This document shows, piece by piece, positions 4,044-46,330 of a DNA stretch of 64,000 nt. A program made the translations under genes and the position numbers. Where the stretch lies: NCBI GenBank assembly GCA_018660465.1, contig JABJKH010000041.1:6650-70649 (forward strand), given 5' to 3'. Position 1 is the stretch's first letter. Every line of letters starts with the position of its first letter. The notes below the pieces were generated by a model that saw nothing but the letters and a program-made list of their open reading frames with translations, did not search any database and was not told the origin of the DNA. The DNA comes from Rhodospirillaceae bacterium. Lineage in GTDB: Bacteria; Pseudomonadota; Alphaproteobacteria; Rhodospirillales; JABJKH01.

Positions 4044-4103
4044 GGGCTTCCCTCCGCCGCCGTTCAATCTGGACATACCAACGTAAGTACGCTAACCGAG
4101 AAG

Positions 4104-11400: not shown

Positions 11401-11868
11401 ACCTTTTGGTTTGAACTCCCCCTATCTGAAGACGCAATGTCCAAGGTAAAAACAAGTGACCAAGAGAATGAAGCAATCAAAATTAAGGAACTCTCAGGAA
11501 AAGTCCTCTACGTAGAAGACAATCCGGCAAACCTGGACCTCATGGAAATGATCATTTCCCGCGTTGAGGACCTAAGCATGATTTCCACCCACACTGCCGA
11601 ATTGGGCTTGGATTTGGCCAAATTGGAGAACCCCGACGTCATCATCATGGACATTAATCTGCCGGGAATGGACGGATTCGAAGCACTTGCGAAGCTCCGG
11701 GTTATGAACTGCACTCTCAAAACACCGGTTATCGCCCTGTCCGCCAACGCGACCAAGCGCGATATAGCGGTCGGGCACGAAGCCGGGTTTTATGACTACC
11801 TAACAAAACCCGTCGATATTAATGCTGTCCTTGGCGCAATTAAGTCAGCTTTGGGTACGCCTGCGTGA
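8437..11868 (+). CDS. Multi-PAS hybrid sensor histidine kinase with C-terminal receiver
   Basis: 1143 aa with repeated PAS/PAC-like blocks (D.T.RK.AE junctions). It has the H-box SHELRTPLNAILGF, N/G boxes (LLSNAVKYN, GTGIGL) and a receiver (VLYVEDNPANL ... DINLPGMDG ... ALSANA). Confidence 0.9.
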   Translation: MKDDDTKNFEILENSPMGVAVVSHADTDTRLTGERLFINDALVKMYGATSRENFQNAEIAKSWVDLKQLRAVEEVMKRREDLVDFEARQRRIDGTEWWVSMNSRPIQFGGRDCTMIWHFDITRRKQAELDLQKSRDEVQMRVEKRFSSLLDGSNQGILIHRNRVPLYANPMLAEMYGYSSPEEIMALESTEVLTHPSYERGTHELRINGEDVAADFQTKGLRKDGSEFWEERRSFTLDWEGEPAVCSMRLDITKKKETEDQFYNAVQSLSEGFAYFNSDDHLVIWNEQFRKRHFGQNKTLEPGISFEDLFRDRVASGLVPSAAGREEDFIKERMEHHNNPGEPFINMHADGTCILINEEKTPDGGTVFTSHDITDQRNTEEAMRVSEARLKNILDNSPTPIYFKDTESRIQLVNRQFEETYGVRWEDIKGKSPVDMYPGEKGERFLEFDMEVLKQQETIKQEEEIDGKTYATSKFPVFDIDGELIGLGGVEMDITERKQAEKKVQDSEAQFRAFIENSPARIILKDTNQRYLLANKAYTDVFGRNEEEFVGKKSSELSWVSKEAVETNEQADGKVLEHGETIRLERVNDPGEITESHWNITKFPVANELGEITGIGGIAIDVTEKKKAELLLQLSENRFRDYGTIASDWFWEMDKNLRFSYFSNRFADISGISPNDLLGKTRRDSGLDGNDDAVMQNIADLKAHRPFRDFEHSRTLPDGHTVYMSTSGVPVFDADGEFQGYRGTGRDVTEQKVAEIVLDQAKQEADEANRAKSDFLSSMSHELRTPLNAILGFSQLLATDPDSPLSEAQKISLNYISKGGHHLLVLIDDVLDLAKIESGKVEYSIEDVVVDRVYKDCLPLVDVKAKERGITITSNSSASEKLVVRADHTRFKQIFLNLLSNAVKYNKKNGTVSVSFDRTPEGMLRTSIQDTGIGISKKNHKELFKPFNRLGQETTETEGTGIGLVVTKQLVTEMGGNIGFESKAHKGSTFWFELPLSEDAMSKVKTSDQENEAIKIKELSGKVLYVEDNPANLDLMEMIISRVEDLSMISTHTAELGLDLAKLENPDVIIMDINLPGMDGFEALAKLRVMNCTLKTPVIALSANATKRDIAVGHEAGFYDYLTKPVDINAVLGAIKSALGTPA

Positions 11869-27314: not shown

Positions 27315-28061
27315 CTACTTCGGCAAAAATGGCTTGAATTGACTTCTTGTGCGACCGCCTTTCCCGAGGCCGCCCGGTCGGTCCAGACTGGGTCGGTCTA
27401 GGCTGGGTCGATCTAGGCTGGGTCGGTCCACGCTGGGTCGGTCTAGGGGACGGGCAATGGGGCTGGGCTTCTCTTCGGTTCGTTGACCTGGCGCAAGATG
27501 CACCGTCCCAATTGGGGAAGCTTCTGCAGAAACCTTCTTCGAAGGGTTCCAGGAGGCGACGGTGACGGCTTTGCCTTCTTGGGTGCGCATGAGCTTAGGC
27601 TTCACGACTTGGTCTACGGCAGGGGTATTGTCGGCGCGGGTAAACGACAACATCATCTCATCCAAGGTGATCTCACTCCGCTTACCGACTTTAATCGCCT
27701 TCTTAAACGCCAGCGTTCCGTTGCAGAGTTTATTCAATCGGTCTGCTGACATGTTGCCGAAACGCCGCCAAATGTTCTCAAGAAAGCTTTCCACATCAAT
27801 CGGCAGGAACAATTCGGCTTCTATATTGGGCCGTCCACGGGTGAAGGCGCGATAGATGTTAGGCTCCAACGGCCCGACTTCTTCGGCAATAAACACGGCA
27901 GGCATTAATTTTTGGCCCTCATAAGCCACAGCAAAATAGGCCTGCGCCAAAAACAAAAGCCGGTGCAGCTTTTGGGGTTGCAGGTACTCGTTATTTTCCA
28001 GCGCCGTGTCGCTGAACCAAAACGCAATATCAAAACTGGAATCAACAGCAGACCGCATCAA
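27315..28061 (-). CDS. Panacea/DUF4065 (GepA/SocA-like) domain protein with C-terminal (L/V)DRPS pentapeptide repeats
   Basis: The N-terminal region ...LQPQKLHRLLFLAQAYFAVAY... resembles the DUF4065 antitoxin-type domain. The C-terminus reads PLDRPSVDRPSLDRPSLDRPSLDRPGG. Confidence 0.6.
   Translation of the reverse strand: MMRSAVDSSFDIAFWFSDTALENNEYLQPQKLHRLLFLAQAYFAVAYEGQKLMPAVFIAEEVGPLEPNIYRAFTRGRPNIEAELFLPIDVESFLENIWRRFGNMSADRLNKLCNGTLAFKKAIKVGKRSEITLDEMMLSFTRADNTPAVDQVVKPKLMRTQEGKAVTVASWNPSKKVSAEASPIGTVHLAPGQRTEEKPSPIARPLDRPSVDRPSLDRPSLDRPSLDRPGGLGKGGRTRSQFKPFLPK
27376..27450. repeat. 15-bp tandem repeat, about 5 copies (GGTCGGTCYAGRCTG)
   Basis: Read directly from the sequence: ggtcggtccagactg / ggtcggtctaggctg / ggtcgatctaggctg / ggtcggtccacgctg / ggtcggtctagggga. 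It encodes the pentapeptide repeat of the Panacea-domain gene. Confidence 0.9.
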
Positions 28062-31869: not shown

Positions 31870-32085
31870 TCAAGTTCCCCCCAGAATGCGGGTTAAGTAT
31901 GCGGTGTTAGGCATCCAAATCTATATACAACAGTATGGTTAATGCCCCGTATTTAGCAGAAGGAACTGTCCCCACACTGTCGTGAATCGCCGGGATGGTA
32001 ACCGAAGTGGATGATCGGGGGAAGAGGTTCTTTTTCACAAAGTCTTGAGGTGGAGTTTGAGACAAGATGGAGACTTTACTCAGGC

Positions 32086-32203
32086 CCTTCGAGACGCGCT
32101 CAAGTGAGCGCTCCTCAGGATGAAGTAATATTTAGGTCCATTGATACAAAGAAATTTTATTTAACTTCATCCTGAAGAGCGCGAAAATCGCGCGTCTCGA
32201 AGG
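32086..32203. repeat. Intergenic nested-palindrome element, copy 1
   Basis: Outer arms are CCTTCGAGAC (32086-32095) and GTCTCGAAGG (32194-32203). Inner arms are TCCTCAGGATGAAG and CTTCATCCTGAAGA around an AT-rich loop. Side hairpins are GCGCTCAAGTGAGCGC and GCGCGAAAATCGCGC. Confidence 0.9.
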
Positions 32204-32216
32204 ACGCGTCGCAAAG

Positions 32217-32732
32217 TTATCCCGAAACACCACCCCACCAGCGCTCAAGCGCTTCCACTTCCACCGGCAACACACCGCCCATGCCACCTGTCCGCTCCTT
32301 CCAAATCTCCAACGCCGTTTCAGGAACGCTGATCAGAAAGGGGATTCCGTCGCTAATCGCCAACATAATTTCATCAGACAAGCCGCGCCCTTTTTGCTCT
32401 TCAACACCGAATTTATCAAATACGATCAATTCGGCTTTGCTCTTAATCGCATCGCGCAGCACGCCGCTTGTCCCGACCAATACAGACGCATCAAGCGCGC
32501 AGGCGTTCTTATCGTAGTCATGCTTTGGAACTCTTTTAATAGGGCTGCGCGCGCCTGTCACAACATCAACCGCATCGATCCCAGCGTAAGTACCATCATC
32601 ATTAAGCACCTTTTCCTGCACCAACCCGGCGACCCGGACGCCGTGCTTTTTACGTTCCTCAGCAAATGCCGCCAAGAAGCCGACGCCGTTGGACCGCGGC
32701 GTGTAGACGACGGCAGCAAATGAGGGCCGCAT
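32217..32732 (-). CDS. DUF2478-like (THEP1/NTPase-related) protein
   Basis: 171 aa. The overall pattern (AGLVQE..., LIVFDKFG..E..G.G) recalls the DUF2478 family, but this is a from-memory match only. Confidence 0.45.
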   Translation of the reverse strand: MRPSFAAVVYTPRSNGVGFLAAFAEERKKHGVRVAGLVQEKVLNDDGTYAGIDAVDVVTGARSPIKRVPKHDYDKNACALDASVLVGTSGVLRDAIKSKAELIVFDKFGVEEQKGRGLSDEIMLAISDGIPFLISVPETALEIWKERTGGMGGVLPVEVEALERWWGGVSG

Positions 32733-32887
32733 TAAGGTTCTCTCCTCCGGGCTCGCGCGAATTGCATACTTATAACTTATTCATTCAGGGAACAGTATCA
32801 CCGAGTTGAAATCTGACTTCCTTGACCTACGTCACATGGGCGGTCAATTTCTCTGTTAAGTACATGGATGAAAGAAGGATACCCCCC

Positions 32888-33814
32888 ATGAGCGACAGCC
32901 AGATCATACTCCACCACTACCCGCAATCCCCGGTCAGTGAAAAAGTCCGGGTGGTGCTTGGTATCAAGGGGCTGGACTGGAAATCTGTGGAAATTCCAAG
33001 GCTGCCGCCGAAACCGAATTTGATGCCGCTGACCGGCGGTTATCGTTTAACCCCGGTGATGCAAATCGGTGCCGACATCTTTTGTGACAGCTTGGCGATT
33101 ATCCGCGAAATTGACCGCCGCCACCCGACCCCCACACTATTTCCCGGCGGCGCGGAAGGCATGGCCTGGGGTGTGGCGCGGTGGACCGATGGGCCGATGT
33201 GCAAGGATGTAACGACCATCGCCATGGTTGAGATGAGCGACACCATGCCAACAGAATTTTTGGCTGATCGTGGTCCGCTCTACTTCGGCGCGGATTTCAC
33301 CCTCGATGGACTCAAAGCCAAATACACGGAATCCTTGGTGAATGTTCGGGCACAACTTGGTTGGCTGAACGAACGGGTCGCGATCCGTCAATTTATGCTG
33401 GGGTCAGAGCCCGGCCTGCCGGATGCACTGTGTTATTATCTGGTCTGGTTCCTGCGCGATCGCATGGCCGAAGCCGAGCCGTTCTTATCACAATTCAAAA
33501 ATATCATTGCTTGGGAACAACGCATGAAAGATATCGGCCACGGCACTCCGGACGATATAAGCGATCTCGATGCCCTCGCTATCGCTAAGAATTCTACTCA
33601 CCAGACACCCGAACGCGCCGACCCTGGCGATCCGCAAGGCCTGAACGTTGGCGATAAGATTACGATTGAACCCGCCGACGGCGGCGTGCCGGTCGAGGGA
33701 ATTCTTCGAAATCTATCGGCCAGCACCATCGCCATTCTGCGCGAAGATGACCAAGTAGGCCAAGTCTGCGTTCACCTCCCCAGGCTGGGGTACCGGGCTA
33801 CTCGCGTTAGTTAA
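32888..33814 (+). CDS. Glutathione S-transferase family protein with extra C-terminal domain
   Basis: From the ATG at 32888 the product starts MSDSQIILHHYPQSPVSEKVRVVLGIKGLDW...TPVMQIGADIFCDS, a GST N-terminal thioredoxin-like fold. The ORF-track start at 32822 is probably too early. Confidence 0.7.
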   Translation: MSDSQIILHHYPQSPVSEKVRVVLGIKGLDWKSVEIPRLPPKPNLMPLTGGYRLTPVMQIGADIFCDSLAIIREIDRRHPTPTLFPGGAEGMAWGVARWTDGPMCKDVTTIAMVEMSDTMPTEFLADRGPLYFGADFTLDGLKAKYTESLVNVRAQLGWLNERVAIRQFMLGSEPGLPDALCYYLVWFLRDRMAEAEPFLSQFKNIIAWEQRMKDIGHGTPDDISDLDALAIAKNSTHQTPERADPGDPQGLNVGDKITIEPADGGVPVEGILRNLSASTIAILREDDQVGQVCVHLPRLGYRATRVS

Positions 33815-33838
33815 TGGCCGATTTAGTTAAAATCCGTG

Positions 33839-34030
33839 TTAGTTAAATGCGGAACTTAAGCGGTTAAAATTAGTTTCCATTTTATTCATCTCAGCCCTCA
33901 ATTCACTCAGCACGATTTGTAACGCATCGACCGAATTGGATTGGCCATCAAGCGAGGATATCATCTGGCCAATCGGCCGGTTGAGCGTTGAAATACGAGA
34001 GGGAACGGAAAATTTAATAACTTCATTCAT
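33839..34030 (-). CDS. Hypothetical small protein (weak call)
   Basis: This is the only ORF in an AT-rich 520-bp gap and its start is ambiguous (34195, 34078 or 34030). No family was recognised. Confidence 0.2.
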   Translation of the reverse strand: MNEVIKFSVPSRISTLNRPIGQMISSLDGQSNSVDALQIVLSELRAEMNKMETNFNRLSSAFN

Positions 34031-34336
34031 AATCTTAATCCAATAAACAATTAAAGCACTTCGTTCATTAATCATTTGGATTCTATACCCCCCTGTTACT
34101 TGAAAATAGCTGTCTAGAAGCATCAGGCGAACATGACAAAAGATATGAATACCCCCCTTTCGATATAAAATAAGATTAGTGTCTGAAAGCGCCAAGAGTT
34201 ACTGTATTTACACTCGACGTTTTGATAAAAGAACTACCTGACTGTTTTGTCAGTTTTAGCTACATATAATCTCATTCATATAGATAATTATAAAATCCTT
34301 TTAGGATGGCGATAAGCCGGTCGATAAAAATTTAAA

Positions 34337-36838
34337 ATGAAGCGAATTAACTCCCTTGTTCTCATCATGGCTGCCATTGCCATTATTGTCGGTGGTATTT
34401 CCATTGTTGTGCTCTACAACACCGCCTATGAGGTTAAGCGCCAGGACCTGATTCAAATGGCGCAGAGCCAAGCGCGCTTGATTGAAGCCATCGCTCGGTT
34501 CGATCAAAAATATAGCGCTAAAGATCATCCACTGGGAGCCGCGGCAGCGACGATTTCTCAAGTCAACGATGCAATTTCGGCCTACAAAGGGTTTGGGGAA
34601 ACCGGTGAATTTGTGCTGGGGAATCGTAAGGCTGATAAAATTATCTTCCTACTAAGTTTTCGCCACCCCACGCCCAACAAACAAGGTCGCCCCACAGAAG
34701 AGGGGGCACGGTACGTTCCTTATAATTCTAGTCTAGCTGAGCCCATGCGGCGTGCCCTTTCCGGGCAGTCGGGAACTGTCGTCGGATCTGACTATCGCGG
34801 CGAAGAGGTATTGGCGGCTCATGAACCGATCAAAGAGCTCGGCCTTGGCATTGTCGCGAAGATCGACCTTGCAGAGATCCGCGCCCCTTATTTGAAAGCC
34901 GCCTTAATTGTCATCGGTTTTGGCCTATTGATTATCTTTTTTGGGTCCCTGTTGTTCTTCCGAATAAGCAGCCTCATCGCCACACAAATCATTAAAGGCG
35001 AAGAAACATTGGCCGCCACGACCAGCGAGCTTGAATTTCAAAAATTGGCTCTTGATGAACACGCCATCGTTAGCATTACAGACGTTGACGGCAACATCAC
35101 CTACGTCAACGACAGGTTCTGCGCAATAAGTGGACATACCCGTGACGAATTAATCGGCCAGAATCATCGTATTCTTAAATCCGGCGAACACGACCAGGCG
35201 TTCTATCAAGATTTATGGCAGACCATCACCAGCGGTAAAACCTGGGAAGGTGAGATTAAGAATCAGAAGAAAAACGGCGACTACTATTGGGTAAGAGCCA
35301 CCATCGTTCCGTTCCTGGATGAACAAGGAACGCCGTTCCAATATGTTGCGATCCGAACCGACGAAACAGAGCGCCTTGAGACCGTCACCAAGTTAGCCGA
35401 GAGCCAAATCATGATTTCTGCAGTTTTGGAAAATTCACCATCTGCCATCAGTGTGAAAGGTTTGGATGGTCTATATTTGATCGTCAATAAGGTTTGGAAC
35501 GACTGGTTCAACCCAACACATAAAGAAGCCGTCGGAAAAGCCGTTGGTGATTTTTTTGAGCCCGCCCATGTGTCAGGAATTGACGCCCAAGACACCGAAG
35601 TCTTGGAATCAGGAAACGCCGTCAGCACGGAAACTCAGACACCACATTCGGACGGAACCATCAGAACATCCATCCTACAAAAATTCCCCGTAAGAGATGC
35701 CAATAACAAAATATTTGGGATCGGCTCCATGAACACTGATATCTCTGACCGAGTTCGCGCAGAGAAAGAAGTTACACAATTTAGAACGACCCTCGACCAT
35801 ACCCAGGACTGCATCTTTATGTTTTGGCCTGATCCGTTGCGGTTCTTTTACGTCAACCAGGGCGGCATGACTCAAGTCGGATACACCCAGGACGAGCTTT
35901 ATAAAATGGCCCCGTTCCAAATTAAACCTGAGTTCACGGAAGCGGAGTTCCGTAACATGATCCAGGGACTGATGGAGGGGCCAGAACACGCGACGACATT
36001 CGAAACAATTCATCAGCATAAAAACGGCAATCAAGTCCCGGTCGAAATATTTTTGCAGTATATCTTCCCCCTCAACGAAAATCCGCGCTTTGTCGCTATC
36101 GTGCGCGACATAACCGAGCGCAAGGAAGTCGACCGCATGAAAAGCGAATTCGTCTCCACCGTCAGCCACGAACTTAGAACCCCCCTGACATCCATCAAGG
36201 GGGCTCTCGGGATGGTCAAAAGCGGTGCCCTGGGTGACATCTCGGAAAGTGCGTTGGACATGGTGGATGTTGCCCACAAGAACAGCGACCGCCTGATCCA
36301 ATTGGTCAATGATATCTTGGATATGGAAAAGCTTCAGTCCGGCAATATGGAACTCGATCTCGAAAACCTTGACCTCACAGCTCTTGTGCGGGAGGCGGTT
36401 GAGACCAATCAAGGCTACGCCCAAGAGCAGAATTCAAAATTCGTTTTTGGGGACCTGGCGTCTGGGGTGACGCTGCAGGCAGATGCGGGTCGCCTGACCC
36501 AAGTGATCGCCAACCTGCTTTCCAATGCCGCCAAGTTTTCACCAGATGGTGGGATCGTCAAAATTTCGATCACCCATGATGAGAGGGAAGCAACCGTTTC
36601 GGTCACTGATTCAGGACCCGGCATAGATGAAGAAATGACGGATCTTATATTCGGAAGATTTACTCAGGTGGATTCTTCCGACACTCGAGAAAAGGGCGGT
36701 ACCGGTTTGGGCCTGAATATCTCCAAATCAATCGTCGAGCTGCACGGCGGCACAATCGGATTTAAGTCCGAAGTTGGTACTGGCAGCACGTTCTTCTTCA
36801 CGTTACCGGTCACACCCGCCGGACGACTCCAAACATAA
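34337..36838 (+). CDS. Sensor histidine kinase with periplasmic Cache-like domain, three PAS domains, HisKA and HATPase_c
   Basis: 833 aa. An N-terminal TM, a ~170-aa extracytoplasmic region and a second TM are followed by PAS/PAC blocks. It has the H-box VSHELRTPLTSIKGAL, LLSNAAKFSP and GGTGLGLNISKSIVELHGG. Confidence 0.9.
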   Translation: MKRINSLVLIMAAIAIIVGGISIVVLYNTAYEVKRQDLIQMAQSQARLIEAIARFDQKYSAKDHPLGAAAATISQVNDAISAYKGFGETGEFVLGNRKADKIIFLLSFRHPTPNKQGRPTEEGARYVPYNSSLAEPMRRALSGQSGTVVGSDYRGEEVLAAHEPIKELGLGIVAKIDLAEIRAPYLKAALIVIGFGLLIIFFGSLLFFRISSLIATQIIKGEETLAATTSELEFQKLALDEHAIVSITDVDGNITYVNDRFCAISGHTRDELIGQNHRILKSGEHDQAFYQDLWQTITSGKTWEGEIKNQKKNGDYYWVRATIVPFLDEQGTPFQYVAIRTDETERLETVTKLAESQIMISAVLENSPSAISVKGLDGLYLIVNKVWNDWFNPTHKEAVGKAVGDFFEPAHVSGIDAQDTEVLESGNAVSTETQTPHSDGTIRTSILQKFPVRDANNKIFGIGSMNTDISDRVRAEKEVTQFRTTLDHTQDCIFMFWPDPLRFFYVNQGGMTQVGYTQDELYKMAPFQIKPEFTEAEFRNMIQGLMEGPEHATTFETIHQHKNGNQVPVEIFLQYIFPLNENPRFVAIVRDITERKEVDRMKSEFVSTVSHELRTPLTSIKGALGMVKSGALGDISESALDMVDVAHKNSDRLIQLVNDILDMEKLQSGNMELDLENLDLTALVREAVETNQGYAQEQNSKFVFGDLASGVTLQADAGRLTQVIANLLSNAAKFSPDGGIVKISITHDEREATVSVTDSGPGIDEEMTDLIFGRFTQVDSSDTREKGGTGLGLNISKSIVELHGGTIGFKSEVGTGSTFFFTLPVTPAGRLQT

Positions 36839-36873
36839 AACTTCAATAAACAGGGGAATCTTTTGATCATTGC

Positions 36874-36909
36874 CCCCCAATTGTCCCCCAATTGTCCCCC
36901 AATTGTCCC
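36874..36909. repeat. 11-bp tandem repeat CCCCCAATTGT x3.3, each unit containing the palindrome CAATTG
   Basis: Read directly from the sequence: ccccccaattgt cccccaattgt cccccaattgt ccc. It lies 36 nt downstream of the kinase stop. Confidence 0.9.
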
Positions 36910-37034
36910 TATGAATAAGATTTTCTTAGGTCAGGTCTTTGGGCTGGCGGCGGCCTATGCTCTGTTCGGCTGGCTGGGATTGTTATCAGCGTTGGAGTTC
37001 AACTCACCTGTAACTCGAGGGGACCGAGCAGAGC

Positions 37035-37472
37035 CTAAAGAATAAGGCTGAGCGAAGAGCCAAGTTTTTCGAAGCTGCCGGTAATGACGCGGACGGTGTC
37101 TTCGTAGACGGCGATGGCTTTCTTGAAATCGCCGGGTCCACCCTTGAACCCATTTCCGGTGTCGCTTTTTTCCCCGCGTTCGTTGATTTCCAGCAACGAC
37201 ACGAACAAATCCGTCGGCGCGTTAAAGCTGCCAGGGTTTTCGGCCCGAGGCCGATTGTTTCTACGGTCTTGATTGGTGTTATCGGCGAGCGCCCGCTCCT
37301 GCTCCTGGAAAATCAGCGCTGTATTATCAAACGAGATAGAGCCGGAGGTGTTGATCTCCTCAACCTGTCCCCGATCACTGGCATTTCCCCGAACAGACGC
37401 AACCGTACGCCCCGCCGTTGGGGCGGTGGGTGCTGTCGCTACCGGTTGTTGCACTCTTGCAATCAGGGCCAT
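37035..37472 (-). CDS. Hypothetical protein
   Basis: 145-aa ORF, low complexity at the N-terminus. No family was recognised. Confidence 0.4.
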   Translation of the reverse strand: MALIARVQQPVATAPTAPTAGRTVASVRGNASDRGQVEEINTSGSISFDNTALIFQEQERALADNTNQDRRNNRPRAENPGSFNAPTDLFVSLLEINERGEKSDTGNGFKGGPGDFKKAIAVYEDTVRVITGSFEKLGSSLSLIL

Positions 37473-37691
37473 TCTGGCTCTTTCCTCGTCTCATTTTCAG
37501 GCTGCCAACCCCATCGAAAACCCCACGCAAACACACATGCGCAGACCCATCGCGGGCTAACATACACTTCTCTACGTCCTAATATATCAAAAAACCGAAA
37601 GAAGTCAATAGCTTAGGGTGAATTTAGGCGCGCAAAATCCACCGCTGTCCAAGTTATTGAATCCATTCACTGATTCGATTTGCTATTTCAG

Positions 37692-38522
37692 CTACCGGGC
37701 CGCCAAAGCCCGGGCTAAAAAGCCATCAATGACTTCGGCGGCAGGGGAATCGTAAAGGTTGTTGTGGCCCGCCAGTTTAATCCAGTGGGCGGTTTTAGGC
37801 TCGGAAGCGGCGTTAAAAAGAGCCTGACCAAACTTGACGGGGACGGTCCCGTCCAGGGTACCGTGCACGATGATCAAGGGGGTATTGATCTCACTGATAA
37901 TCGCCGCTGAATTGAAACGATCTCGAACCAGCCACTGGGCCGGTACAATCGGGTAATGATGCTGTGCGACATCTGCCAGGGTCGTGTAGGGCGCTTCCAA
38001 GACCAGCGCTGCCACTGGGGTATTCTGTTTTGCGAATTCCCAAGCCATCCGAACCGCCGGACCGGAGCCCAGAGATTCGCCGTAGATCACCAAATTGTCT
38101 GGCCCAAGACCTTGGTCATCAGCAAATTTCAGCCACGCCCTGGCATCCGCATATAAGCCCTCCTCGCTCGGGTTGCCGGGGTTGCCGCCAAAGCCTCTGT
38201 ATTCGGCCAGCAACACCCCATAGCCCCAATCCATATAACGCCGAGCCTTAAAGGCGCGGTCCGCTACCGATCCCGCATTGCCATGGAACAGCACGATCAG
38301 CGGCTTTTCGGGTTTGGGTGGGGCGAACCAACCTGACAGTTCCAACCCATCCGCTGTCGACGCACTCACGACCTTCATCTCAGGCACACGCATCTGAGTT
38401 GGAGATGGCGGTGCACTGCCTGGGTGATAAATCATGGAGCGCTGCAACGCGAACAAGGCGATCACAAAGACCAAATACGCGCCCAGAAGGCTACTAACGA
38501 TGCTGATCATTTTTCCCCTCAC
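37692..38522 (-). CDS. Alpha/beta hydrolase (membrane-anchored, S9/S33-like)
   Basis: N-terminal TM, an HGNAG oxyanion region, the GESLGSG nucleophile elbow, and downstream D and H (GHNNL). Confidence 0.8.
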   Translation of the reverse strand: MRGKMISIVSSLLGAYLVFVIALFALQRSMIYHPGSAPPSPTQMRVPEMKVVSASTADGLELSGWFAPPKPEKPLIVLFHGNAGSVADRAFKARRYMDWGYGVLLAEYRGFGGNPGNPSEEGLYADARAWLKFADDQGLGPDNLVIYGESLGSGPAVRMAWEFAKQNTPVAALVLEAPYTTLADVAQHHYPIVPAQWLVRDRFNSAAIISEINTPLIIVHGTLDGTVPVKFGQALFNAASEPKTAHWIKLAGHNNLYDSPAAEVIDGFLARALAAR

Positions 38523-38532
38523 AACAGCCCCT

Positions 38533-39285
38533 TCACAGTAACCACAACTTCTTCATCAGTCGCGCCAGTTCTGGGTCATGTTTTTCCAAATCGCGGCGGT
38601 TGTAGGGGTAGTGGTCGTTTTGTCCGAAGTAGGCTTCGGTGCCTTCGGCAAAGTACTCACGGACGTTGCGCATCGCATAGTGCTTGGCCTTCTTTCCATC
38701 AATGCGATCGACATTATCATAGCTGCCATTGGCGCTGGCCTTTTTATATGCAGCGATAAGTTCCGGATGGTCGTATCCCAGAACCTGTTCGTGGTAGGCA
38801 TGGGACAATTCGTGCAGCAACAACAATGGCGCGCCGTCCTCCGATTGTAAAAAGTAACCACCATCACTGATGGAAATGCCGCCGGCCTTATCCTTGTTGA
38901 TGCCGTTCTTGATCAGCCACGGCCCGGCCTGGGTGTGAAAATAATGAAACTTGAATTCATCAAACTTTTCCCAGCGTGCATCGTGCTGCACCCAGATCGG
39001 AATCAGGCGCAAGAATGTCGTGACATTTGGCGGTACAAGTTTGCTGATTCGAATGAGATCGCGGCGCAATTTCTGCCGCACTCTGGTTGCTAATCTTTTT
39101 CGCTGATAGTGCAGTTCCTTGTTCACCCGAAGGGTCCAACCGGCGATGTTCTCGCTGAGATAGCTGGCGGTCGGTTGAACGCCTTTCGCTTGAGCAAACA
39201 CCGACGATGGCAAGGCTAAAACCGCCACCATGAAAAGCCATAAAATGATTAAGAGCCGCGCCACCTTACTCCACCGGACGAGCAT
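38533..39285 (-). CDS. Secreted putative zinc metallopeptidase (HExxH)
   Basis: Signal-peptide-like N-terminus ending in AQA, and an LLLLHELSHAYHEQ motif. Confidence 0.6.
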   Translation of the reverse strand: MLVRWSKVARLLIILWLFMVAVLALPSSVFAQAKGVQPTASYLSENIAGWTLRVNKELHYQRKRLATRVRQKLRRDLIRISKLVPPNVTTFLRLIPIWVQHDARWEKFDEFKFHYFHTQAGPWLIKNGINKDKAGGISISDGGYFLQSEDGAPLLLLHELSHAYHEQVLGYDHPELIAAYKKASANGSYDNVDRIDGKKAKHYAMRNVREYFAEGTEAYFGQNDHYPYNRRDLEKHDPELARLMKKLWLL

Positions 39286-40099
39286 TGGTGACCTTGGTTA
39301 GGGGCGCTTTATTGTTACTCTGGATGACATCGAAAGCATAACGCCAAGAGACGCCGGGGCCGGTCACGGTCGCTTGGCAGGTGCGAAGTACCTTGATCGC
39401 ATCAAAACTAAGATCCTTATATCCGGAGACGCTAAAACGGCTGATGGTGGTTTTGTCTGGCACCCGGTCGCGGACCGCGATGCGCAGCAACAATCCCGCC
39501 TGCTCGCGGACAATATCATCGGTGCAGGTCGGCAATTCAACAGCACTCCCCTGCCACAACCGCATCCATTGTGCCTGCGCCTCACCCTCGCCCCTAGGGA
39601 TCAACCCCCACCCAAGGGCGGCGATAAAGCCCGCCACCGCGTAGGCGCTCCACGATGTGCCGCCGCGCCTCAGGATCGCGTCTTCGCGTTGCATCTGGGA
39701 AATTGTATCGCCATAGATCTCCTCCAGTTTCTCAACGCTACGAGTCACATAGACATAATTGGCAACCATCGCCAATACGGCAAAGACCAGCGGCGTGCCG
39801 ATGATTGCCACCCGGGGCGAGATCAGCCACAACACCGCCGGCACAAACATCAAACACGCACCGATGGTCGCCATGCGGCGGTAGAAATACCAAGGAACAG
39901 ACAACAAAAACGCCGACCAATTCCATGAAATAAGGCCGCCCAGAAACGCTCCACCGCCGGCAGAAATCTTTTGATATTGGGAGAAATAATAAGTGTCGTT
40001 GCGGCCAAAAAATTGCCGTAGATCTTCTTCGTCCGGCGGGTTCTTTCCCAATCCGCCAACACCATTCGATCTACCGTTCGCACTCACTTCCGCCATCAT
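39266..40099 (-). CDS. DUF2628-like membrane protein with C-terminal soluble domain
   Basis: YYFSQYQKI....WNWSAFLLSVPWYFYRRM is typical of DUF2628 and is followed by additional TMs. The 3' end overlaps the next gene's start by 20 nt. Confidence 0.5.
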   Translation of the reverse strand: MMAEVSANGRSNGVGGLGKNPPDEEDLRQFFGRNDTYYFSQYQKISAGGGAFLGGLISWNWSAFLLSVPWYFYRRMATIGACLMFVPAVLWLISPRVAIIGTPLVFAVLAMVANYVYVTRSVEKLEEIYGDTISQMQREDAILRRGGTSWSAYAVAGFIAALGWGLIPRGEGEAQAQWMRLWQGSAVELPTCTDDIVREQAGLLLRIAVRDRVPDKTTISRFSVSGYKDLSFDAIKVLRTCQATVTGPGVSWRYAFDVIQSNNKAPLTKVTNARPVE

Positions 40100-40359
40100 C
40101 CCCCCCAGGACAAATCAATGGAAATATTCAATCGGATAAATCAATGGGATTTATCGATTTACAATCTTGAGCAACACCATCCTGCCGCGAACCCGTTTAA
40201 AGGGCAATATGTTAGAAATTTCGCCCGTATTCAATCGTATTGAATCATTTGCAGCATAACGTTCTCTGCATTAAAACTAATACAAATTGCATAGACCAAT
40301 AAATAAATGTTATGCTTAAAGTAATACTTCTCAAATAAATATAGATTTTTCTTAAAATT

Positions 40360-40378
40360 AATAATGATTATCATTGTA
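40360..40378. promoter_or_regulatory. Fur-box-like palindrome
   Basis: aATAATGATtATCATTgTa matches the classical consensus GATAATGATAATCATTATC at 15 of 19 positions. It lies about 150 nt upstream of the dual-PAS chemoreceptor, in a 420-bp AT-rich gap. Confidence 0.3.
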
Positions 40379-40524
40379 TTTTATGCGAAGAACATCAAAT
40401 AGCTTGATTAATTATCAACGCCTAAGGCCCTAAAGATTTTAAAAATTGGATAAATGCGCTGCTCCATTAGGGGGAGAGTGCCGATTGTTTATCATATAAC
40501 GCGATTTATTTTAAGGAGTGCGCC

Positions 40525-42006
40525 ATGCTTAGAAAAACCCCAACCCATGCTAAAATGCAGGGACAGATGCTGGAAAATATGCCGGTCAACATCATGATGT
40601 TGGAGATTCAGGATTACCGCATCACTTACATGAACAAAACCAGCGAAAACACCTTGAAAAGTCTAGAACACTTGTTGCCGTGCAGAATCGACGACTTGGT
40701 CGGGCAATGTGTTGATATTTTCCACAAAAACCCAGCCCACCAACGCCAGATGTTGGCTGATCCCAGCAATCTTCCGCATCAGGCGATTATTCAACTTGGC
40801 GATGAGTACCTAGACCTTTTGGTCACGGCGATGAATGACAGTTCCGGCAACTATGTCTCTGCAATGCTGACATGGAGCGTGGTCACCGATAAAATTAAAT
40901 CGGAAGAAAGCAGCAACCGGCAACTCCAGGTCATCAACCAAATTCCAGTTGGCGTGATGCTGGCCGATCCAGAATCCTTGGAAATTACCTATATTAACGA
41001 ATTCACCAAGACCACACTGAAATCGCTGGAACATCTTATTCCGTGCACGGTGGATAGCTTAATCGGGCAATGCATCGATATATTCCATAAAAATCCCGCC
41101 CATCAGCGGCAAATGTTGAAAGATCCTGCCAACCTCCCGCATGTGGCAAAAATCAACCTCGGCGGAGAAACTCTGGATCTTCGGGTTTCGGCAATCACCG
41201 GTGCAGACGGTGGCTATGAAGGTATTCTGTTGGTCTGGAGCGTTGTCACTGGCCAAGTCAAAATGGCCGACGACTTTGAGTCGAATGTTAAGTCGGTTGT
41301 AGAAACCCTGGCGGCTGCGGCCACTGAAATGCAGGCGACGTCTGAATCCATGGCCGCAACGGCGGAGGAAACCACCAATCAGGCGAGTACTGTTGCAGCA
41401 GCGACAGAACAATTAAGTGCCTCGGTCAATGAGATTTCCTCACAGGTGTCCGTATCAGCGACCGCTGCTTCCAACGCGGTCGAGGAAGCCGAACGCTCAA
41501 ATCAAATGGTCCAAGGTCTGGCCGATGCGGCAGACAAGATCGGACAAGTGGTGAACCTGATTAAGGACGTCGCTGATCAGACCAACCTTCTGGCCTTGAA
41601 TGCAACAATTGAAGCTGCCCGCGCCGGTGATGCTGGTAAAGGCTTTGCGGTTGTCGCGTCTGAAGTTAAGAACTTGGCCAATCAGACCGCCAAGGCAACT
41701 GAGGAAATTGCGGCCCAGATCAGTTCGATCCAAGGGGCAACGAAAGAGTCGGTAGACGCCATTCAGACCATCAGCAAAACCATCAACGAGATCAGCGAAA
41801 TTCAAACCACGATCTCATCGGCGGTGGAAGAACAAAGCGCCTCTACCCAGGAAGTTAACGTCACGATTAACGGCGTTAGCCAAGCATCCCAGGAAACAGG
41901 TATTGCCGCCTCCAACGTTATGGAATCAGCTGGCGACTTGGCCAAACAGGGCGAAATTCTGGCCCAGGAAGTTGAGAAATTCCTGGTTGAAGTCCGCGCA
42001 ATGTAA
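40525..42006 (+). CDS. Soluble methyl-accepting chemotaxis protein with two tandem PAS-like sensor domains
   Basis: No TM segment. Two ~125-aa repeats share [39 protein letters not shown]. These are followed by the MCP hairpin [34 protein letters not shown]. Confidence 0.85.
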
Positions 42007-42035
42007 AATTAGAACGAAGTCTTCGAGTGACGAGA

Positions 42036-42064
42036 AAGGGGCCCTTCGTGGGCCCCTTTTTATT
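42036..42064 (+). terminator. Rho-independent terminator of the dual-PAS MCP gene
   Basis: GGGGCCC-TTCGT-GGGCCCC (42038-42056) followed by TTTTTATT. Confidence 0.75.
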
Positions 42065-42098
42065 GCGTGTAATTCCTGAAGACGTGGTGCCAATGAGT

Positions 42099-42222
42099 GT
42101 CCTTCGAGACGCGCCTAAGCAAGCGCTCCTCAGGATGAAGAGTTTTCATAAGCAATTGATAATAAACTTAATTTTAATATATCTTCATCCTGAGGAGCCG
42201 CGCCAGCGGCATCTCGAAGGAC
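42099..42222. repeat. Intergenic nested-palindrome element, copy 2
   Basis: Outer arms are GTCCTTCGAGA and TCTCGAAGGAC. Inner arms are TCCTCAGGATGAAG (42127-42140) and CTTCATCCTGAGGA (42183-42196). Side hairpins are GCGC-CTAAGCAA-GCGC and GCCGC-GCCA-GCGGC. Confidence 0.9.
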
Positions 42223-42259
42223 GCTCAGCGGTACAAACTCACCTTATATACAGACCAAT

Positions 42260-42523
42260 CTAATGAATAATAAACTCACCATCTGCCAAGCGAACTTCGG
42301 CCGGTTTGATCAGCTGGGCATTGGCGACGCGCACTGAATGCAATTTGCCATCAAGCCGCTGTTCCCAAAAATCCAGGAACTTTTTTAATTCAGGAAATTG
42401 CGGGGCTAGGTCCAGCTTCTGCCACACGAAACTTTGCAGCAAACTAGGAAGATCCGGCATGTGGTACAGGATTTCCGCTGTCGTCAGGCGGTAGTCTTTA
42501 AGTTGGCGTTTCAGATCAGACAT
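42260..42523 (-). CDS. usg: Usg-family protein
   Basis: From the ATG at 42523 (GGAG 6 nt upstream) the product is MSDLKRQLKDYRLTTAEILYHMPDLPSLLQSFVWQKLDLAPQFPELKKFLDFW..., the Usg-like family pattern. The longer ORF-track start is unlikely. Confidence 0.55.
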   Translation of the reverse strand: MSDLKRQLKDYRLTTAEILYHMPDLPSLLQSFVWQKLDLAPQFPELKKFLDFWEQRLDGKLHSVRVANAQLIKPAEVRLADGEFIIH

Positions 42524-42646
42524 GATGCATCTCCTTATCCACTGGGCAGTGTGCAGGAAACGCCATAAGAGTTCAACAATTATGTAATAATTCCAAGGGA
42601 TTAGCAGCCGCCGCACGAGAGTGCTGCCAATCCCTTGAGAGGCGTT

Positions 42647-43267
42647 TTAAAGCCCGTTGTCGGTGATATGAGTCTTGTATCCCGGGCGTGCCTTCAGACG
42701 GTCATGCCAAGCGTCCAAGTTCGCCAATGCGGGATGATCCAGGTCCAACAGCTTCCAGCGATTAATAAAAAAGCCGACGGGAATATCGCCCATGGTGAGG
42801 TTCTCACCGGCGACGAAGGGTCTATCAGCCAAATGTGCATCCAACATTTTTATGTACACAATGGCGGCTTGCTTGGCTTCGGCGATGGCGTCTTGGTCCC
42901 AGTCCGCTTCTTCCTTGCGGGTGGTTTCACGGAAAATAAAGCCAACCGTGGAATTCAGCGCAAATAACTGCCAGTCCATCCACCGGTCTGCCTCAGACCG
43001 TTCTGCCGGGTCTTCCGGCCACAAGGTGCCCTTGCCGTGAATGGAGCTGAGGTAGCGAATAATAGAATTAGATTCCCAGATGATTGTGTCGCCGTCTTCC
43101 AGGGTCGGGACGAGTCCATTTGGGTTTATCGCCCGGTACGCCGGATCATCGTTGCCGCCAAACGGGCCCCCAAGATCCACTCGGTCAAATTCCAAGTTTA
43201 ATTCTGCCAGACACCACAAAACCTTGCGCACGTTGCTGGATGTTTTTCGTCCCCAAACTTTTAACAT
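42647..43267 (-). CDS. Glutathione S-transferase
   Basis: 206 aa. SSNVRKVLW...NPNGLVPTLEDGD..IWESN.IIRYL is the canonical GST N-terminal domain. Confidence 0.8.
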   Translation of the reverse strand: MLKVWGRKTSSNVRKVLWCLAELNLEFDRVDLGGPFGGNDDPAYRAINPNGLVPTLEDGDTIIWESNSIIRYLSSIHGKGTLWPEDPAERSEADRWMDWQLFALNSTVGFIFRETTRKEEADWDQDAIAEAKQAAIVYIKMLDAHLADRPFVAGENLTMGDIPVGFFINRWKLLDLDHPALANLDAWHDRLKARPGYKTHITDNGL

Positions 43268-43558
43268 TTTTTCGCCTCAATCTTTAAATACCATACGATA
43301 GGATGCGAAGGTGCGTCCTTGCGGGTAAAAGCGCAACATATAAGTTAACTTTATCGTACTCATTTGACCGTCTGACATGATTTTGACTTGATTTTTGGGT
43401 CTTCTTTGGCAGTATAGAGGATACCGGTCCGAATTTCAGGGAGGATTGGTGGAAAGATCGCTATCTCGGTTCTGAAAACGAGGATAGACTTGATCTAAAT
43501 AGCCTGGGAACGTCACTCGGAGTTTCACCCGAATGACTCTTCCAGCTTGCGATAGGGA

Positions 43559-44173
43559 TTGACGATGCGAAGACTTTTTTCTGCCGGTGTTTTTGCTTTA
43601 TTCATGGCCGTGGTTTGGAGCCCGGACAACGCGCGCGCTGACGCGTTTTCTGATGGCGCCCTGAAATTCATCGAAAACCTGGCCCATAAATCACTGACGA
43701 CCCTGACCGGGGATAACATAAATGTAAAAGAGCGGCGGCGTCGCTTTAAAATTCTCCTGCACAAAAATTTTGCCGTGAAAACCATCGGACGCTGGGTGCT
43801 GGGGCGCTATTGGCGGAAGGCCAAGCAACCCCAGAAAGACGAGTATTTCGACCTGTTCGAAAGCCTTATTATCAAGACCTACGCCGACCGCTTTGCAAAA
43901 CTATCTGGCTCCAGTTTGATTGTGAAGAAAGCCATCTCCAAGGGCAGCAAGGACACGGTGGTTTATTCGGAATTTCGGGAAGGCAAAAAAGTAGCGGCTA
44001 AAATCAACTGGCGGCTGCGCGCCAAGGAAGGCCAGTTCCGGATCATCGACGTGATGGTCGAAGGCATCAGCATGGGTATGACCCAGCGCGACGAGTTCGC
44101 TTCGGTCATTCGCAAAAGCGGCCGCGGTGTTGAGGGCTTGCTCAGGGAACTCCGCAAGAAGAAGACTCTCTAA
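43559..44173 (+). CDS. MlaC/Ttg2D-family lipid-binding periplasmic protein (HpnM-like position next to hopanoid genes)
   Basis: Signal peptide, 204 aa, and MlaC-like motifs (F.....I.R.VLGRYWR, F...Y..Y...F). It is located directly upstream of hpnC. Confidence 0.6.
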   Translation: MTMRRLFSAGVFALFMAVVWSPDNARADAFSDGALKFIENLAHKSLTTLTGDNINVKERRRRFKILLHKNFAVKTIGRWVLGRYWRKAKQPQKDEYFDLFESLIIKTYADRFAKLSGSSLIVKKAISKGSKDTVVYSEFREGKKVAAKINWRLRAKEGQFRIIDVMVEGISMGMTQRDEFASVIRKSGRGVEGLLRELRKKKTL

Positions 44174-44182
44174 CTCGAGGTC

Positions 44183-45040
44183 ATGAACACCCCATTGGCG
44201 ACACAGGATTCGGTCGAAACTCCTTCAGGTAAAGACGCCGCCTACGAGAACTTTCCGGTGGGCTCATGGCTGTTGCCAGCGCATCTCCGCCCACATATCG
44301 CTGTGTATTATAACTTTGCCCGTGCGATTGATGACATCGCCGATAATCCTGACACCCAGCCCGACGAAAAAATTAAACGCCTCAGTGAATTTGAACGCGC
44401 CGTGCTGGGCGAAGGCGACCCCGACCCGCTCTATGCGACCGGCCACCGTATGCGCGACAGCCTGAATGAAACCGGCACCACGCCCCAGCACTGCCTGGAC
44501 TTGGTCGATGCTTTTAAACAAGACGCGGTCAAAGGGCGCTACGACGACTGGGACGATCTGATGCACTACTGCATTCGCTCAGCAGCCCCCGTTGGACGCT
44601 ACCTATTGGATATTCACGGCGGATCAGTCGATGGCTATGGCCCGTCGGATGCGCTGTGTAATGCGCTGCAAGTGATCAATCATCTTCAGGACTGCCAGGA
44701 CGATTATCAGACCATGGACCGGGTGTATCTGCCGGGCGACTGGATGGCGGCACATGGTGGCACGGTCGAACAATTGGATCAGGACAAGGCATCCCCCGGG
44801 ATCAGAAAAGTCATTGATCAGTGCCTAGACGCAACAGACGAACTCATGATCGAAGCGCGGCGTTTGCCCGCGGGATTAAAGTCCAAACGTCTGGCCATGG
44901 AATCCGCCTTCATCGTCCGTATTGCCGATGCCTTGATTAAGCGCTTGCGGAATGAAGACCCGGTGGCGGGGCGGGTGCAGTTAAGTAAGCCCCAGTTTGT
45001 CTGGTGTGGCATTCGGGGCGTTGGTTCGGTTTTATTTTGA
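44183..45040 (+). CDS. hpnC: Hydroxysqualene synthase HpnC (squalene/phytoene synthase family)
   Basis: ENFPV, ARAIDDIADNP and LQDCQDDYQ.DRVYLP Asp-rich motifs. Context with hpnD, hpnE and shc supports the call. Confidence 0.8.
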   Translation: MNTPLATQDSVETPSGKDAAYENFPVGSWLLPAHLRPHIAVYYNFARAIDDIADNPDTQPDEKIKRLSEFERAVLGEGDPDPLYATGHRMRDSLNETGTTPQHCLDLVDAFKQDAVKGRYDDWDDLMHYCIRSAAPVGRYLLDIHGGSVDGYGPSDALCNALQVINHLQDCQDDYQTMDRVYLPGDWMAAHGGTVEQLDQDKASPGIRKVIDQCLDATDELMIEARRLPAGLKSKRLAMESAFIVRIADALIKRLRNEDPVAGRVQLSKPQFVWCGIRGVGSVLF

Positions 45041-45065
45041 GGGAGATGTTGGAGCTTAACAATGC

Positions 45066-45165
45066 GTCCTTCGAGACGCCGCTTTGCGGCTCCTCAGGAT
45101 GAAGAATATTATTGAATAAAAAATCTTCATCCTGAGGAGCGCGAGAATTGCGCGTCTCGAAGGGT
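45066..45165. repeat. Intergenic nested-palindrome element, copy 3 (between hpnC and hpnB)
   Basis: Outer arms are CCTTCGAGAC (45068-45077) and GTCTCGAAGG (45154-45163). Inner arms are TCCTCAGGATGAAG and CTTCATCCTGAGGA. Side hairpins are GCCGC-TTT-GCGGC and GCGC-GAGAATT-GCGC. Confidence 0.9.
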
Positions 45166-45190
45166 CTGAGCGAAACTCACTAGATATATC

Positions 45191-46330
45191 ATGATACAAC
45201 GCCTCCTCCCCTTCCTCCCCTTCGCCATCTGGATCGGTCTCATCCTGTTCAGAGGCAACTTTTGGCGCTCGGATCAAATTACGTCCGGAGAAGCCAAAGA
45301 CTTGGACTCATGGCCCAACGTCACCGCTGTCATACCGGCGCGCAACGAGGCCCCTTCCATCGGGGCGACGGTCGAGACCTTGTTGGCGCAGGATTATCCG
45401 GGCTCCCTCTCAGTCGTAGTCGTTGACGACAACAGCGACGATGGCACGGCAGACGTCGCACGTGCCGCCGCAGGAGATCGGGCAGACAAACTCACGGTCG
45501 TCAGCGGCAAGCCCTTGGAAGCTGGATGGAGCGGTAAGCTGTGGGCCGTAAGCCAAGGCATCGAAGGCGCCACCACGTCCGACTACATTTGGCTGACCGA
45601 TGCCGACATCACGCACACGCCGGGAAACCTGCGCTGGCTGGTGGCCAAGGCGGAGGTAGAAAAACTCGATCTGGTTTCCGAAATGGTCATGCTGCGCTGT
45701 GAAAGCTTTTGGGAGCGCTTGCTGATCCCGGCCTTTATTTTCTTTTTCCAAAAGCTGTATCCCTTCCCCCAGGTTAACAACCCGGACCATGCTGTCGCCG
45801 CAGCCGCCGGCGGTTGTGTATTGGTCAAGCGGAAGGCCTTGGCAGATGCGGGCGGCATTGCCGCGATTAAGGACAAGTTGATCGACGATTGCGCCCTGGC
45901 GGCGATCATCAAGGCTCGCGGGCCGATTTGGTTGGGCCTGACCGAACGCGCGCACAGTTTGCGAGTCTATAATCATTTGAGCGAAATCTGGCACATGGTC
46001 GCCCGCACCGCGTTCGTGCAGTTGGATCATTCGGTCCTGCAACTGATCGGCACCGTCGTCGGCATGGCAATCATTTATCTGGCGGCACCGATCATGGCGA
46101 TCTGGAGCGGCATCACGGGAGATGAACTTTTAGGGCTTGCCGGCGGTGGTGCTTGGCTGGTGATGGCGATCACATTTTTGCCAACGCTGAGACTGTATAA
46201 AATGAACCCAGCCTGGGCGATGGCGTTGCCGCTGGCCGGGTTGATTTATACAGCCATGACCGTTGATTCCGCTCGCCAACATTGGGCCGGGCGCGGCGGG
46301 GCCTGGAAGGGGCGGAGTTATAGTTCTTGA
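45191..46330 (+). CDS. hpnB: Hopene-associated family 2 glycosyltransferase (HpnB-like)
   Basis: N-terminal TM, then the GT2 motifs VIPARNEA and VVVVDDNSDDGT, then C-terminal TMs. It sits inside the hpn cluster. Confidence 0.7.
   Translation: MIQRLLPFLPFAIWIGLILFRGNFWRSDQITSGEAKDLDSWPNVTAVIPARNEAPSIGATVETLLAQDYPGSLSVVVVDDNSDDGTADVARAAAGDRADKLTVVSGKPLEAGWSGKLWAVSQGIEGATTSDYIWLTDADITHTPGNLRWLVAKAEVEKLDLVSEMVMLRCESFWERLLIPAFIFFFQKLYPFPQVNNPDHAVAAAAGGCVLVKRKALADAGGIAAIKDKLIDDCALAAIIKARGPIWLGLTERAHSLRVYNHLSEIWHMVARTAFVQLDHSVLQLIGTVVGMAIIYLAAPIMAIWSGITGDELLGLAGGGAWLVMAITFLPTLRLYKMNPAWAMALPLAGLIYTAMTVDSARQHWAGRGGAWKGRSYSS

Follow-up and report, generated by a model that had tools for sequence, protein, structure and literature searches.

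The 64-kb stretch of Rhodospirillaceae contig JABJKH010000041.1 analysed here (the window, to which coordinates refer and in which alone the units of this genome were counted) carries three intergenic elements, each consisting of two inverted, tail-to-tail copies of one ~50-nt module. The elements are probably inverted pairs of palindromic repeat units that resemble the repetitive extragenic palindromes (REP) and bacterial interspersed mosaic elements (BIME) and belong to the class Alphaproteobacteria; the family is possibly already catalogued among the REP classes. The likeness to REP/BIME is one of behaviour, because the units occur singly or as inverted pairs, mix subtypes within a pair, lie at the 3' ends of genes, and are gained or lost between close relatives. 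An earlier note on this DNA had read the elements as conserved four-way junctions; the conserved object is the half-element, the single unit, and not the four-way junction.

Three elements built from one unit

By direct reading of the sequence, the elements occupy 32086-32203 (copy 1), 42101-42220 (copy 2) and 45068-45163 (copy 3), which shifts the ends first given for copies 2 and 3 by 2 nt or less. The copies are real and non-random, and the earlier note described them correctly: all three are intergenic, all six quoted side-hairpin sequences match the DNA, and the central loops of copies 1, 2 and 3 are 39, 42 and 20 nt long. The shared outer and inner inverted repeats are equally there. With up to 3 mismatches allowed, the inner-arm motif CTCCTCAGGATGAAG has 8 matches in the window, 6 of them inside the three copies and the remaining two unrelated (3 mismatches each); shuffled sequences gave a mean of 1.3 matches, and 0 of 100 reached 8. 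The outer-arm motif CCTTCGAGACGC picks out the six ends also tagged by CTCCTCAGGATGAAG. In this lineage the inverted repeat extends ~12-14 nt past the ends originally assigned, reading CTTTACTCAGCGT-CCTTCGAGAC. Measured against shuffles, folding of the elements on both strands gives z scores of -8.6 to -11.3 as RNA and -8.1 to -9.1 as DNA.

The module reads 5'-(CC)TCATCC-TTCGAGAC-(GC hairpin, variable in sequence and length)-TCCTCA-GGATGA(GG)-3'. A pattern scan for the half-unit across 185,579 species-representative genomes matched at least 120 stretches. Using the half-pattern CCTTCGAGAC-(GC hairpin)-TCCTCAGGATGA for extraction, 239 units were pulled from 120 loci, and a covariance model of the single unit, R1, was trained on 70 of them, none from the window. 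Scanned with R1, the window contains exactly six units, all intergenic, with E-values from 5.6e-13 to 7.4e-9; the next match has an E-value of 0.27.

In copy 1, the left unit (32078-32131, core 32086-32123, + strand; 38.1 bits, E 7.4e-9; regular-expression extraction) carries the type A hairpin GCGCTCAAGTGAGCGC, and the right unit (32159-32211, core 32167-32203, - strand; 51.9 bits, E 6.7e-13) carries the type B hairpin GCGCGATTTTCGCGC, read on its own strand. An AT-rich spacer of 43 nt (32124-32166) lies between the two cores. Copy 2 has a decayed type A hairpin, GCGCCTAAGCAAGCGC, in its left unit (42093-42146, core 42101-42138, + strand; 41.2 bits, E 9.1e-10) and a type C hairpin, GCCGCTGGCGCGGC, in its right unit (42177-42228, core 42185-42220, - strand; 44.4 bits, E 1.1e-10). 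In copy 3, type C (GCCGCTTTGCGGC) is on the left (45060-45110, core 45068-45102, + strand; 52.2 bits, E 5.6e-13) and type B (GCGCAATTCTCGCGC) on the right (45119-45171, core 45127-45163, - strand; 43.0 bits, E 2.7e-10). The side hairpins do differ in sequence between copies, as first reported, but they are not six independent sequences, nor do all of them pair fully, since those of copy 2 left and copy 3 right retain just 4 clean pairs. Copies 1 and 2 have left units that are 90% identical, copies 1 and 3 have right units that are 92% identical, and copy 2 shares the GCCGC...GCGGC stem of its right hairpin with the left hairpin of copy 3. Because of these cross-copy likenesses, the elements, with types (A,B), (A,C) and (C,B), are best read from their sequences as combinations of three hairpin types and not as diverged copies of one master.

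On one strand the unit folds into a nearly continuous hairpin. The closing stem CATCCT/AGGATG, in which the bases just 5' of the first block and the CC of that block pair with the GG-ATG of the second, is followed by a 2-nt bulge; above the bulge come GAG/CTC, a 2x2 internal loop and a GC stem that mostly ends in a T-N-C triloop. Single units folded in isolation adopt this structure. The unit model has 17 pairs, with 88-91% of cells paired vs 76-78% in shuffles, and ~22 nt of the unit are invariant across Alphaproteobacteria.

The proposal that the side hairpins hold their structure while their sequence changes is borne out across the family. The apical hairpin has 207 distinct sequences in the 239 units from other genomes (among the matches listed), and 188 of the 239 contain at least 5 contiguous pairs, as compared to ~2.5% of shuffles; 1194 of 1269 hairpin pairs are Watson-Crick, 8 are G.T and 13 are A.C. 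Covariation within the single unit is strong, in the closing stem as well as in the GC hairpin: the scores are 0.321 and 0.312 vs 0.110 and 0.101 in shuffles, 0 of 500 shuffles reach the observed values, and slid partners score 0.02-0.10. At the two inner closing-stem pairs, 199-215 of 245 units have C-G and 28-43 have G-C, and just 2 units at each are non-standard, so that 243 of 245 keep the pairing; at the next pair, 219 units have T-A and 14 have C-G. The hairpin being nearly all Watson-Crick, with few G.T and few A.C pairs, both strands pair equally well. The invariant blocks stand 7-30 nt apart, and however long the intervening stretch is, it is always self-complementary, a sequence pattern which argues that the folded single strand, not duplex DNA, is what counts. 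No joined blocks with 0-6 nt between them ("empty" units) occur in 208 loci.

The four-way junction is a by-product of pairing tail-to-tail, since any such pair yields the outer 10-bp and inner 14-bp inverted repeats: the left blocks of the two units would pair as the outer stem, the right blocks as the central stem, and the units' own hairpins would protrude. All three window copies can be drawn in this form, but it is the minimum free energy (MFE) structure in only one of the six strand-copies, the + strand of copy 2, where the side-hairpin pair probability is ~0.75. In the other five, a long bent hairpin beats it by 3-8 kcal/mol, and the side hairpins reach a pair probability of 0.07 at most. 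The half-element occurs alone as well as head-to-head and tail-to-tail, and covariation for the outer and central inter-unit stems was not found: the type-determining positions pair inside the unit in 243 of 245 cases but conflict from one unit to the other in 41 of 99 dimers. A hammerhead or kink-turn likeness noticed by eye on the reverse strand (CUGAGGA...GAA) was rejected, the topology being a single hairpin and not a three-way junction.

Distribution, placement and turnover of the unit

The unit family is widespread but patchy. Among the matches listed, the half-unit occurs in Reyranella, Bradyrhizobium, Bosea, Methylocystis, Beijerinckia, Pseudolabrys and Rhodopseudomonas, and further in Afipia, Devosia, Roseibium, Sphingomonas, Zavarzinia, Caulobacterales and others. 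R1 finds 221 units in 100 loci when applied to 746 kb of the ascertained loci. The patchiness is evident because the same model finds no unit in 942 kb around hpnB of related marine genomes (HpnB identity 65% or less). A BLAST search against plasmids gave one half-unit match, in Methylobacterium bullatum. In IMG/VR, 96 viral or prophage contigs (L210-L305, mean GC 66%) contain 217 units, arranged as 39 head-to-head, 23 tail-to-tail and 4 direct, so that inverted pairs prevail here as in the family at large; the repeat either invades prophages or was counted there because the viral calls take in host flanks. Typical units also lie on contigs of metagenome-assembled genomes labelled Parcubacteria and Akkermansiaceae (L042, locus positions 2480-2568 and 7631-7667; L059, 948-1039), which are probably mis-binned.

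Among the matches listed, 139 clusters comprise 56 head-to-head pairs, 43 tail-to-tail pairs, 36 apparently single units and ~3 direct pairs. Unit-to-unit gaps are 11-77 nt in the family, and 43, 46 and 24 nt in the three window copies. Stem subtypes are mixed (CC/GG with GG/CC or GC/GC) in 41 of the 99 dimers among those matches. One locus, L091, shows the rare head-to-tail arrangement at locus positions 7118-7295, with three direct units whose starts are 63 and 78 nt apart and whose hairpins are all different.

The unit matches no catalogued RNA family in the searches made. Rfam 15 at gathering thresholds has no match in the window and none at the units of 18 other loci, where the sole matches are an unrelated TPP riboswitch and SRP RNA; when 41900-45400 was scanned permissively, nothing but generic models of miRNA precursors and sRNAs came up, all far under gathering scores. 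A literature search with four invariant-block strings returned primer coincidences only, and the motif is not in the text or supplements, as distinct from the figures, of the REP catalogues PMC3733652 and PMC12306157.

Units are placed at the 3' ends of genes. In context counts made with a crude gene finder based on GC3 (third-position GC), 39 elements lie in convergent, 62 in tandem and 9 in divergent spacers, against a background of 103/284/112 (chi-square, by hand, ~21.7, 2 degrees of freedom). Divergent spacers are depleted, and the median distance past the upstream stop is 32 nt. Orientation relative to transcription is unbiased (dimers 27 vs 20, singles 8 vs 6). In the window, copy 1 ends 13 nt from the stop of a DUF2478 gene (32217-32732, - strand). 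Copy 2 lies between the MCP and Usg genes, which converge. Upstream of it and outside the repeat stands a hairpin followed by a T-run (GGGGCCCTTCGTGGGCCCCTTTTTATT, 42034-42067, + strand), shaped like an intrinsic terminator of the MCP gene; it aligns with a similar one in locus L126, where copy 2 is absent, and was not listed by a terminator scan. The unit itself was rejected as an intrinsic terminator, there being no T-run after the units. Copy 3 is located between hpnC and hpnB, as first described (HpnC 44183-45040, HpnB 45191-46330, both above NCBIfam cut-offs), 27 nt after the hpnC stop and 27 nt before the hpnB start codon.

Comparison with close relatives shows that the copies come and go. 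In a sister species (L126-L128, HpnB 89% identical), the site of copy 2 is cleanly empty, and the window holds 188 extra nt (~42064-42251, ends approximate, from the filled/empty alignment with L126). In this single pair the extra DNA exceeds the element and has TAAT at both ends, in AT-rich DNA. Another relative, with 91% HpnB identity, lacks copy 3, as its gene table puts hpnC and hpnB just 5 nt apart. A second filled/empty site pair was found at the unrelated loci L054 and L121. The empty site of copy 2 and the 5-nt hpnC-hpnB gap tell against the earlier contention that the elements are something other than a mobile repeat of the MITE kind (miniature inverted-repeat transposable element). 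The hpnC-hpnB spacer carries a dispensable repeat and not a hopanoid-specific regulator.

L126-L128 do have copy 3 between hpnC and hpnB, at the orthologous position. Its invariant blocks are identical and the neighbouring unique DNA is still alignable, but both hairpins are different perfect palindromes (GCCGCTTTGCGGC replaced by GCGCTTTCAGCGC, and GCGCGAGAATTGCGC by GGCTGCAACGCAGCC). Whole-hairpin replacement, together with the mosaic pattern of the three copies, suggests that hairpins turn over by exchange between copies or by re-templating rather than by slow compensatory drift. The fast turnover of perfect palindromes and the class-wide constancy of the two blocks around them are the unusual features of the unit.

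A ~5.2-kb block, 31870-37034, has copy 1 at its left edge and includes the DUF2478 gene, a GST-like gene and a PAS histidine kinase gene. In two relatives with 91% HpnB identity, the gene tables show 261-813 nt between the flanking genes of 81 and 145/146 aa. Copy 1 marks the edge of a lineage-specific gene block.

Mobility and competing explanations

As REP/BIME-like repeats, the units may spread, or exchange from site to site, as single-stranded DNA hairpins, and a putative enzyme would recognise the pair of invariant blocks that the hairpin brings together. Where a unit is transcribed, in a 3' untranslated region (UTR) or an intra-operon spacer, its stable stem-loop would block 3' exonucleases or be a target of a double-strand RNase, and would uncouple upstream from downstream mRNA levels, for instance those of hpnC and hpnB. 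The earlier observation that no transposase is nearby stands, with none within ~10 kb of any copy, but it is uninformative for repeats of this type, which are normally far from any enzyme moving them.

Several points weigh against the REP/BIME reading. REPs normally differ from genus to genus, so that ~22 nt held invariant throughout a bacterial class is unusual for them. No mobilising enzyme turned up when E. coli RayT was used as a tblastn query against 2.0 Mb plus 0.8 Mb of repeat neighbourhoods (best E 0.42-0.44; one distant query, of low power), and the best match lies in an open reading frame (ORF) that by eye we take to resemble a MarR-type regulator. Neighbour-gene clustering gave no recurring family beyond generic ABC ATPases, short-chain dehydrogenases, permeases and similar. 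There is no terminal GTAG tag, and flank counts show no conserved motif outside positions -6 to -1 and +1 to +2. No clean target-site duplication was seen, and the TAAT repeat and the AAACTCACC likeness beside copies 2 and 3 do not add up to a consistent one. The strand evidence is ambiguous, with 8 G.T vs 13 A.C in the hairpin and 65 G.T vs 4 A.C at one closing-stem position, where the 65:4 excess may reflect a subfamily (GTGCGT-CC) rather than RNA selection. Finally, the RNA-level effects are inferred, and within the source genome the copies are known from these 64 kb alone.

A bolder proposal, to which we give a modest chance, makes the unit a recognition module in an undescribed system common to the whole class Alphaproteobacteria, and has it read by a putative conserved enzyme or binding protein. 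The blocks TTCGAGAC and TCCTCA, single-stranded, and the closing stem would be displayed on a sequence-free hairpin whose palindromy is actively maintained. Candidate readers would be a domesticated single-strand DNA transposase unrelated to the known RAYTs (REP-associated tyrosine transposases), or an RNA-binding factor acting at 3' ends. If such a factor exists, it would explain the ~22-nt class-wide conservation, the swapping of whole hairpins at orthologous sites and the presence of units in some lineages but not in others.

There is a small chance that the elements are instead host-maintained chromosomal binding sites, at which an extruded palindrome is read by a conserved protein of the gyrase, IHF or nucleoid-organising type. 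The two blocks would then meet upon extrusion, either in a cruciform or when replication leaves the DNA single-stranded. Class-wide invariant blocks held 7-30 nt apart by an always self-complementary stretch are consistent with recognition of a folded form and not of the duplex, and pairing is equally good on both strands. In addition, TATCAATTGCTTA in the spacer of copy 2 (42149-42161, - strand) fully matches, by eye, the IHF consensus WATCAANNNNTTR. However, the consensus is matched in one of the three spacers and only partially in copies 1 and 3, no candidate protein was identified, the copies are dispensable between sister species, and the 942 kb of related marine genomes yielded no unit.

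An ordinary MITE of ~125-150 bp, with ~23-bp terminal inverted repeats (CTTTACTCAGCGTCCTTCGAGAC) and moved whole by a DDE transposase encoded elsewhere, appears improbable. Such an element would account for terminal inverted repeats that reach 12-14 nt beyond the universal blocks in the source lineage, for the clean empty site of copy 2, where the extra DNA has TAAT at either end, and for an AT-rich centre like that of Correia/ERIC-type elements. But the two halves of one element bear different hairpins and reassort between copies, and neither single units nor the use of both inverted arrangements is expected of a fixed-end transposon. The 188 nt exceed the element, a 4-nt repeat in AT-rich DNA does not establish a duplication, and the ~10 kb around each copy contain no transposase domain.

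A dedicated cis-regulatory or structural RNA, in which selection acts on the whole cloverleaf, is very improbable: the side hairpins covary and every window copy can be drawn so, but in addition to the unfavourable folding energies and the mismatched inter-unit stems, units are found alone and in head-to-head pairs no rarer than tail-to-tail ones, show no orientation bias relative to transcription, match no Rfam family and are dispensable in sister species.

The REP/BIME-like repeat has practical consequences. Well-studied genera such as Bradyrhizobium, Rhodopseudomonas, Bosea, Methylocystis and Reyranella have the unit in abundance; it has no Rfam model and would be masked cleanly by a model such as R1. 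Units create spurious ORFs and false N-terminal extensions, for example a permease call that starts MVRDARPCRAPHHEE and runs through a unit. In the window, the mechanical ORFs 42027-42263 and 45056-45277, flagged earlier as artefacts, do exist and have no Pfam match. Read-through ORFs at L116 (locus positions 3578-4594, - strand) and L007 (4514-5006) contain the recurring pseudo-peptides MVRDARPCRAPHHEE..., ...PHPEEPRLARCLEGWP... and ...RDAPQGE..., and such peptides probably account for some false starts and false small proteins in annotated alphaproteobacterial genomes. The hundreds of independent hairpin variants on an invariant scaffold also form a data set on how palindromy is kept up, whether by selection, templated repair or copy exchange, and one usable for phylogenetic profiling of a factor that reads the scaffold.

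Two other repeats were seen in the window. A tandem array of 15-nt period (GGTCGGTCYAGRCTG, at least 5 periods) occupies 27376-27447. Three paralogous stretches, 10727-11687, 18451-19411 and 36132-36534, are 75-82% alike, the first two being exactly 7724 nt apart. The third lies inside a PAS/HisKA histidine kinase gene (34337-36838), and the first two are therefore probably, by their sequence, duplicated sensor kinase genes.

Relation to known repeat systems

The REP/BIME sequences of E. coli and other enterobacteria (Stern 1984; Gilson/Bachellier; summarised in PMC3733652) are imperfect extragenic palindromes with an outer stem, non-complementary residues and an inner self-complementary GC part. 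The present unit is likewise a short imperfect palindrome (20-50 nt in the REP definition) that forms a stem-loop, lies at 3' ends and makes inverted dimers, with direct pairs rare. The two also share clusters of alternating orientation, often with mixed-subtype pairs, that follow the 3' ends of genes and lie between convergent genes; E. coli REPs are transcribed within mRNAs. On the other hand, sequence similarity is not established, the unit has no GTAG tag and no RAYT gene was found; its internal loops are larger and invariant, its apical hairpin is hypervariable, and it is conserved class-wide, whereas REPs are conserved family-wide.

MITEs such as Correia/NEMIS and ERIC are 100-150 bp long, with terminal inverted repeats and an AT-rich centre. 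They are co-transcribed as long hairpins that RNase III can cleave and that alter mRNA levels. Unlike the present elements, they have fixed ends and a TA duplication and are not mosaics of an autonomous half-unit. Integron attC sites were considered and rejected, the R''/R' boxes (RYYYAAC...GTTRRRY) being absent from the invariant blocks and the copies scattered; no integrase domain turned up among the scanned neighbour genes.

REPINs, the REP doublets of the REPIN-RAYT system (Bertels and Rainey, PMC3116915, PMC3337134), resemble the elements in being inverted, with a short spacer and a long hairpin, and in being gained and lost as a unit. REPIN halves, however, are near-identical and come with a RAYT, whereas the halves here differ in the hairpin (3 of 3 window copies) and often in stem subtype, as in the 41 of 99 mixed dimers elsewhere; an assignment to REPINs was rejected for this reason. 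Head-to-head and tail-to-tail pairs are both common here and no RAYT was detected, which is weak evidence. Group 1 RAYTs are reported to be rare in Alphaproteobacteria (PMC5581495). The GTAG-tagged, RAYT-associated REPs were likewise set aside, as no conserved unpaired GTAG stands at one end of the unit.

REP dimers, mixed-subtype dimers and REP classes with no dedicated transposase have been described in Alphaproteobacteria (PMC3733652). Among them, the CGTC-tagged REPs (Di Nocera et al. 2013, PMC3733652) are found in all alphaproteobacterial orders, form inverted and often mixed dimers and have no dedicated transposase, as here. The unit was not assigned to the CGTC super-family, since it lacks the terminal CGTC, the 8-9 bp stem starting from A-T, the 4-5 nt loop and the CCA tail; a CGTC reading of the 5' end (CGT-CC) is possible in only 64-65 of 239-245 units, ~27%. 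Br-REP1 and Br-REP2 (Hahn et al. 2016, PMC5082802) are intergenic palindromes that lie where the 3' UTRs of convergent Bradyrhizobium genes overlap, and they were seen as small transcripts. They have the intergenic palindromic form and a host group in common with the unit but different consensus sequences (CCGGAATCTCGAGATTCCGG; CGAGATTCCGGG...CCCGGAATGA). The GTAG-3 and GTAG-14 classes possess variable self-complementary GC "loops", which in GTAG-14 reach up to 27 bp in Bradyrhizobium (PMC3733652). Compared by description only, their architecture is that of the present unit, which may be one of them.

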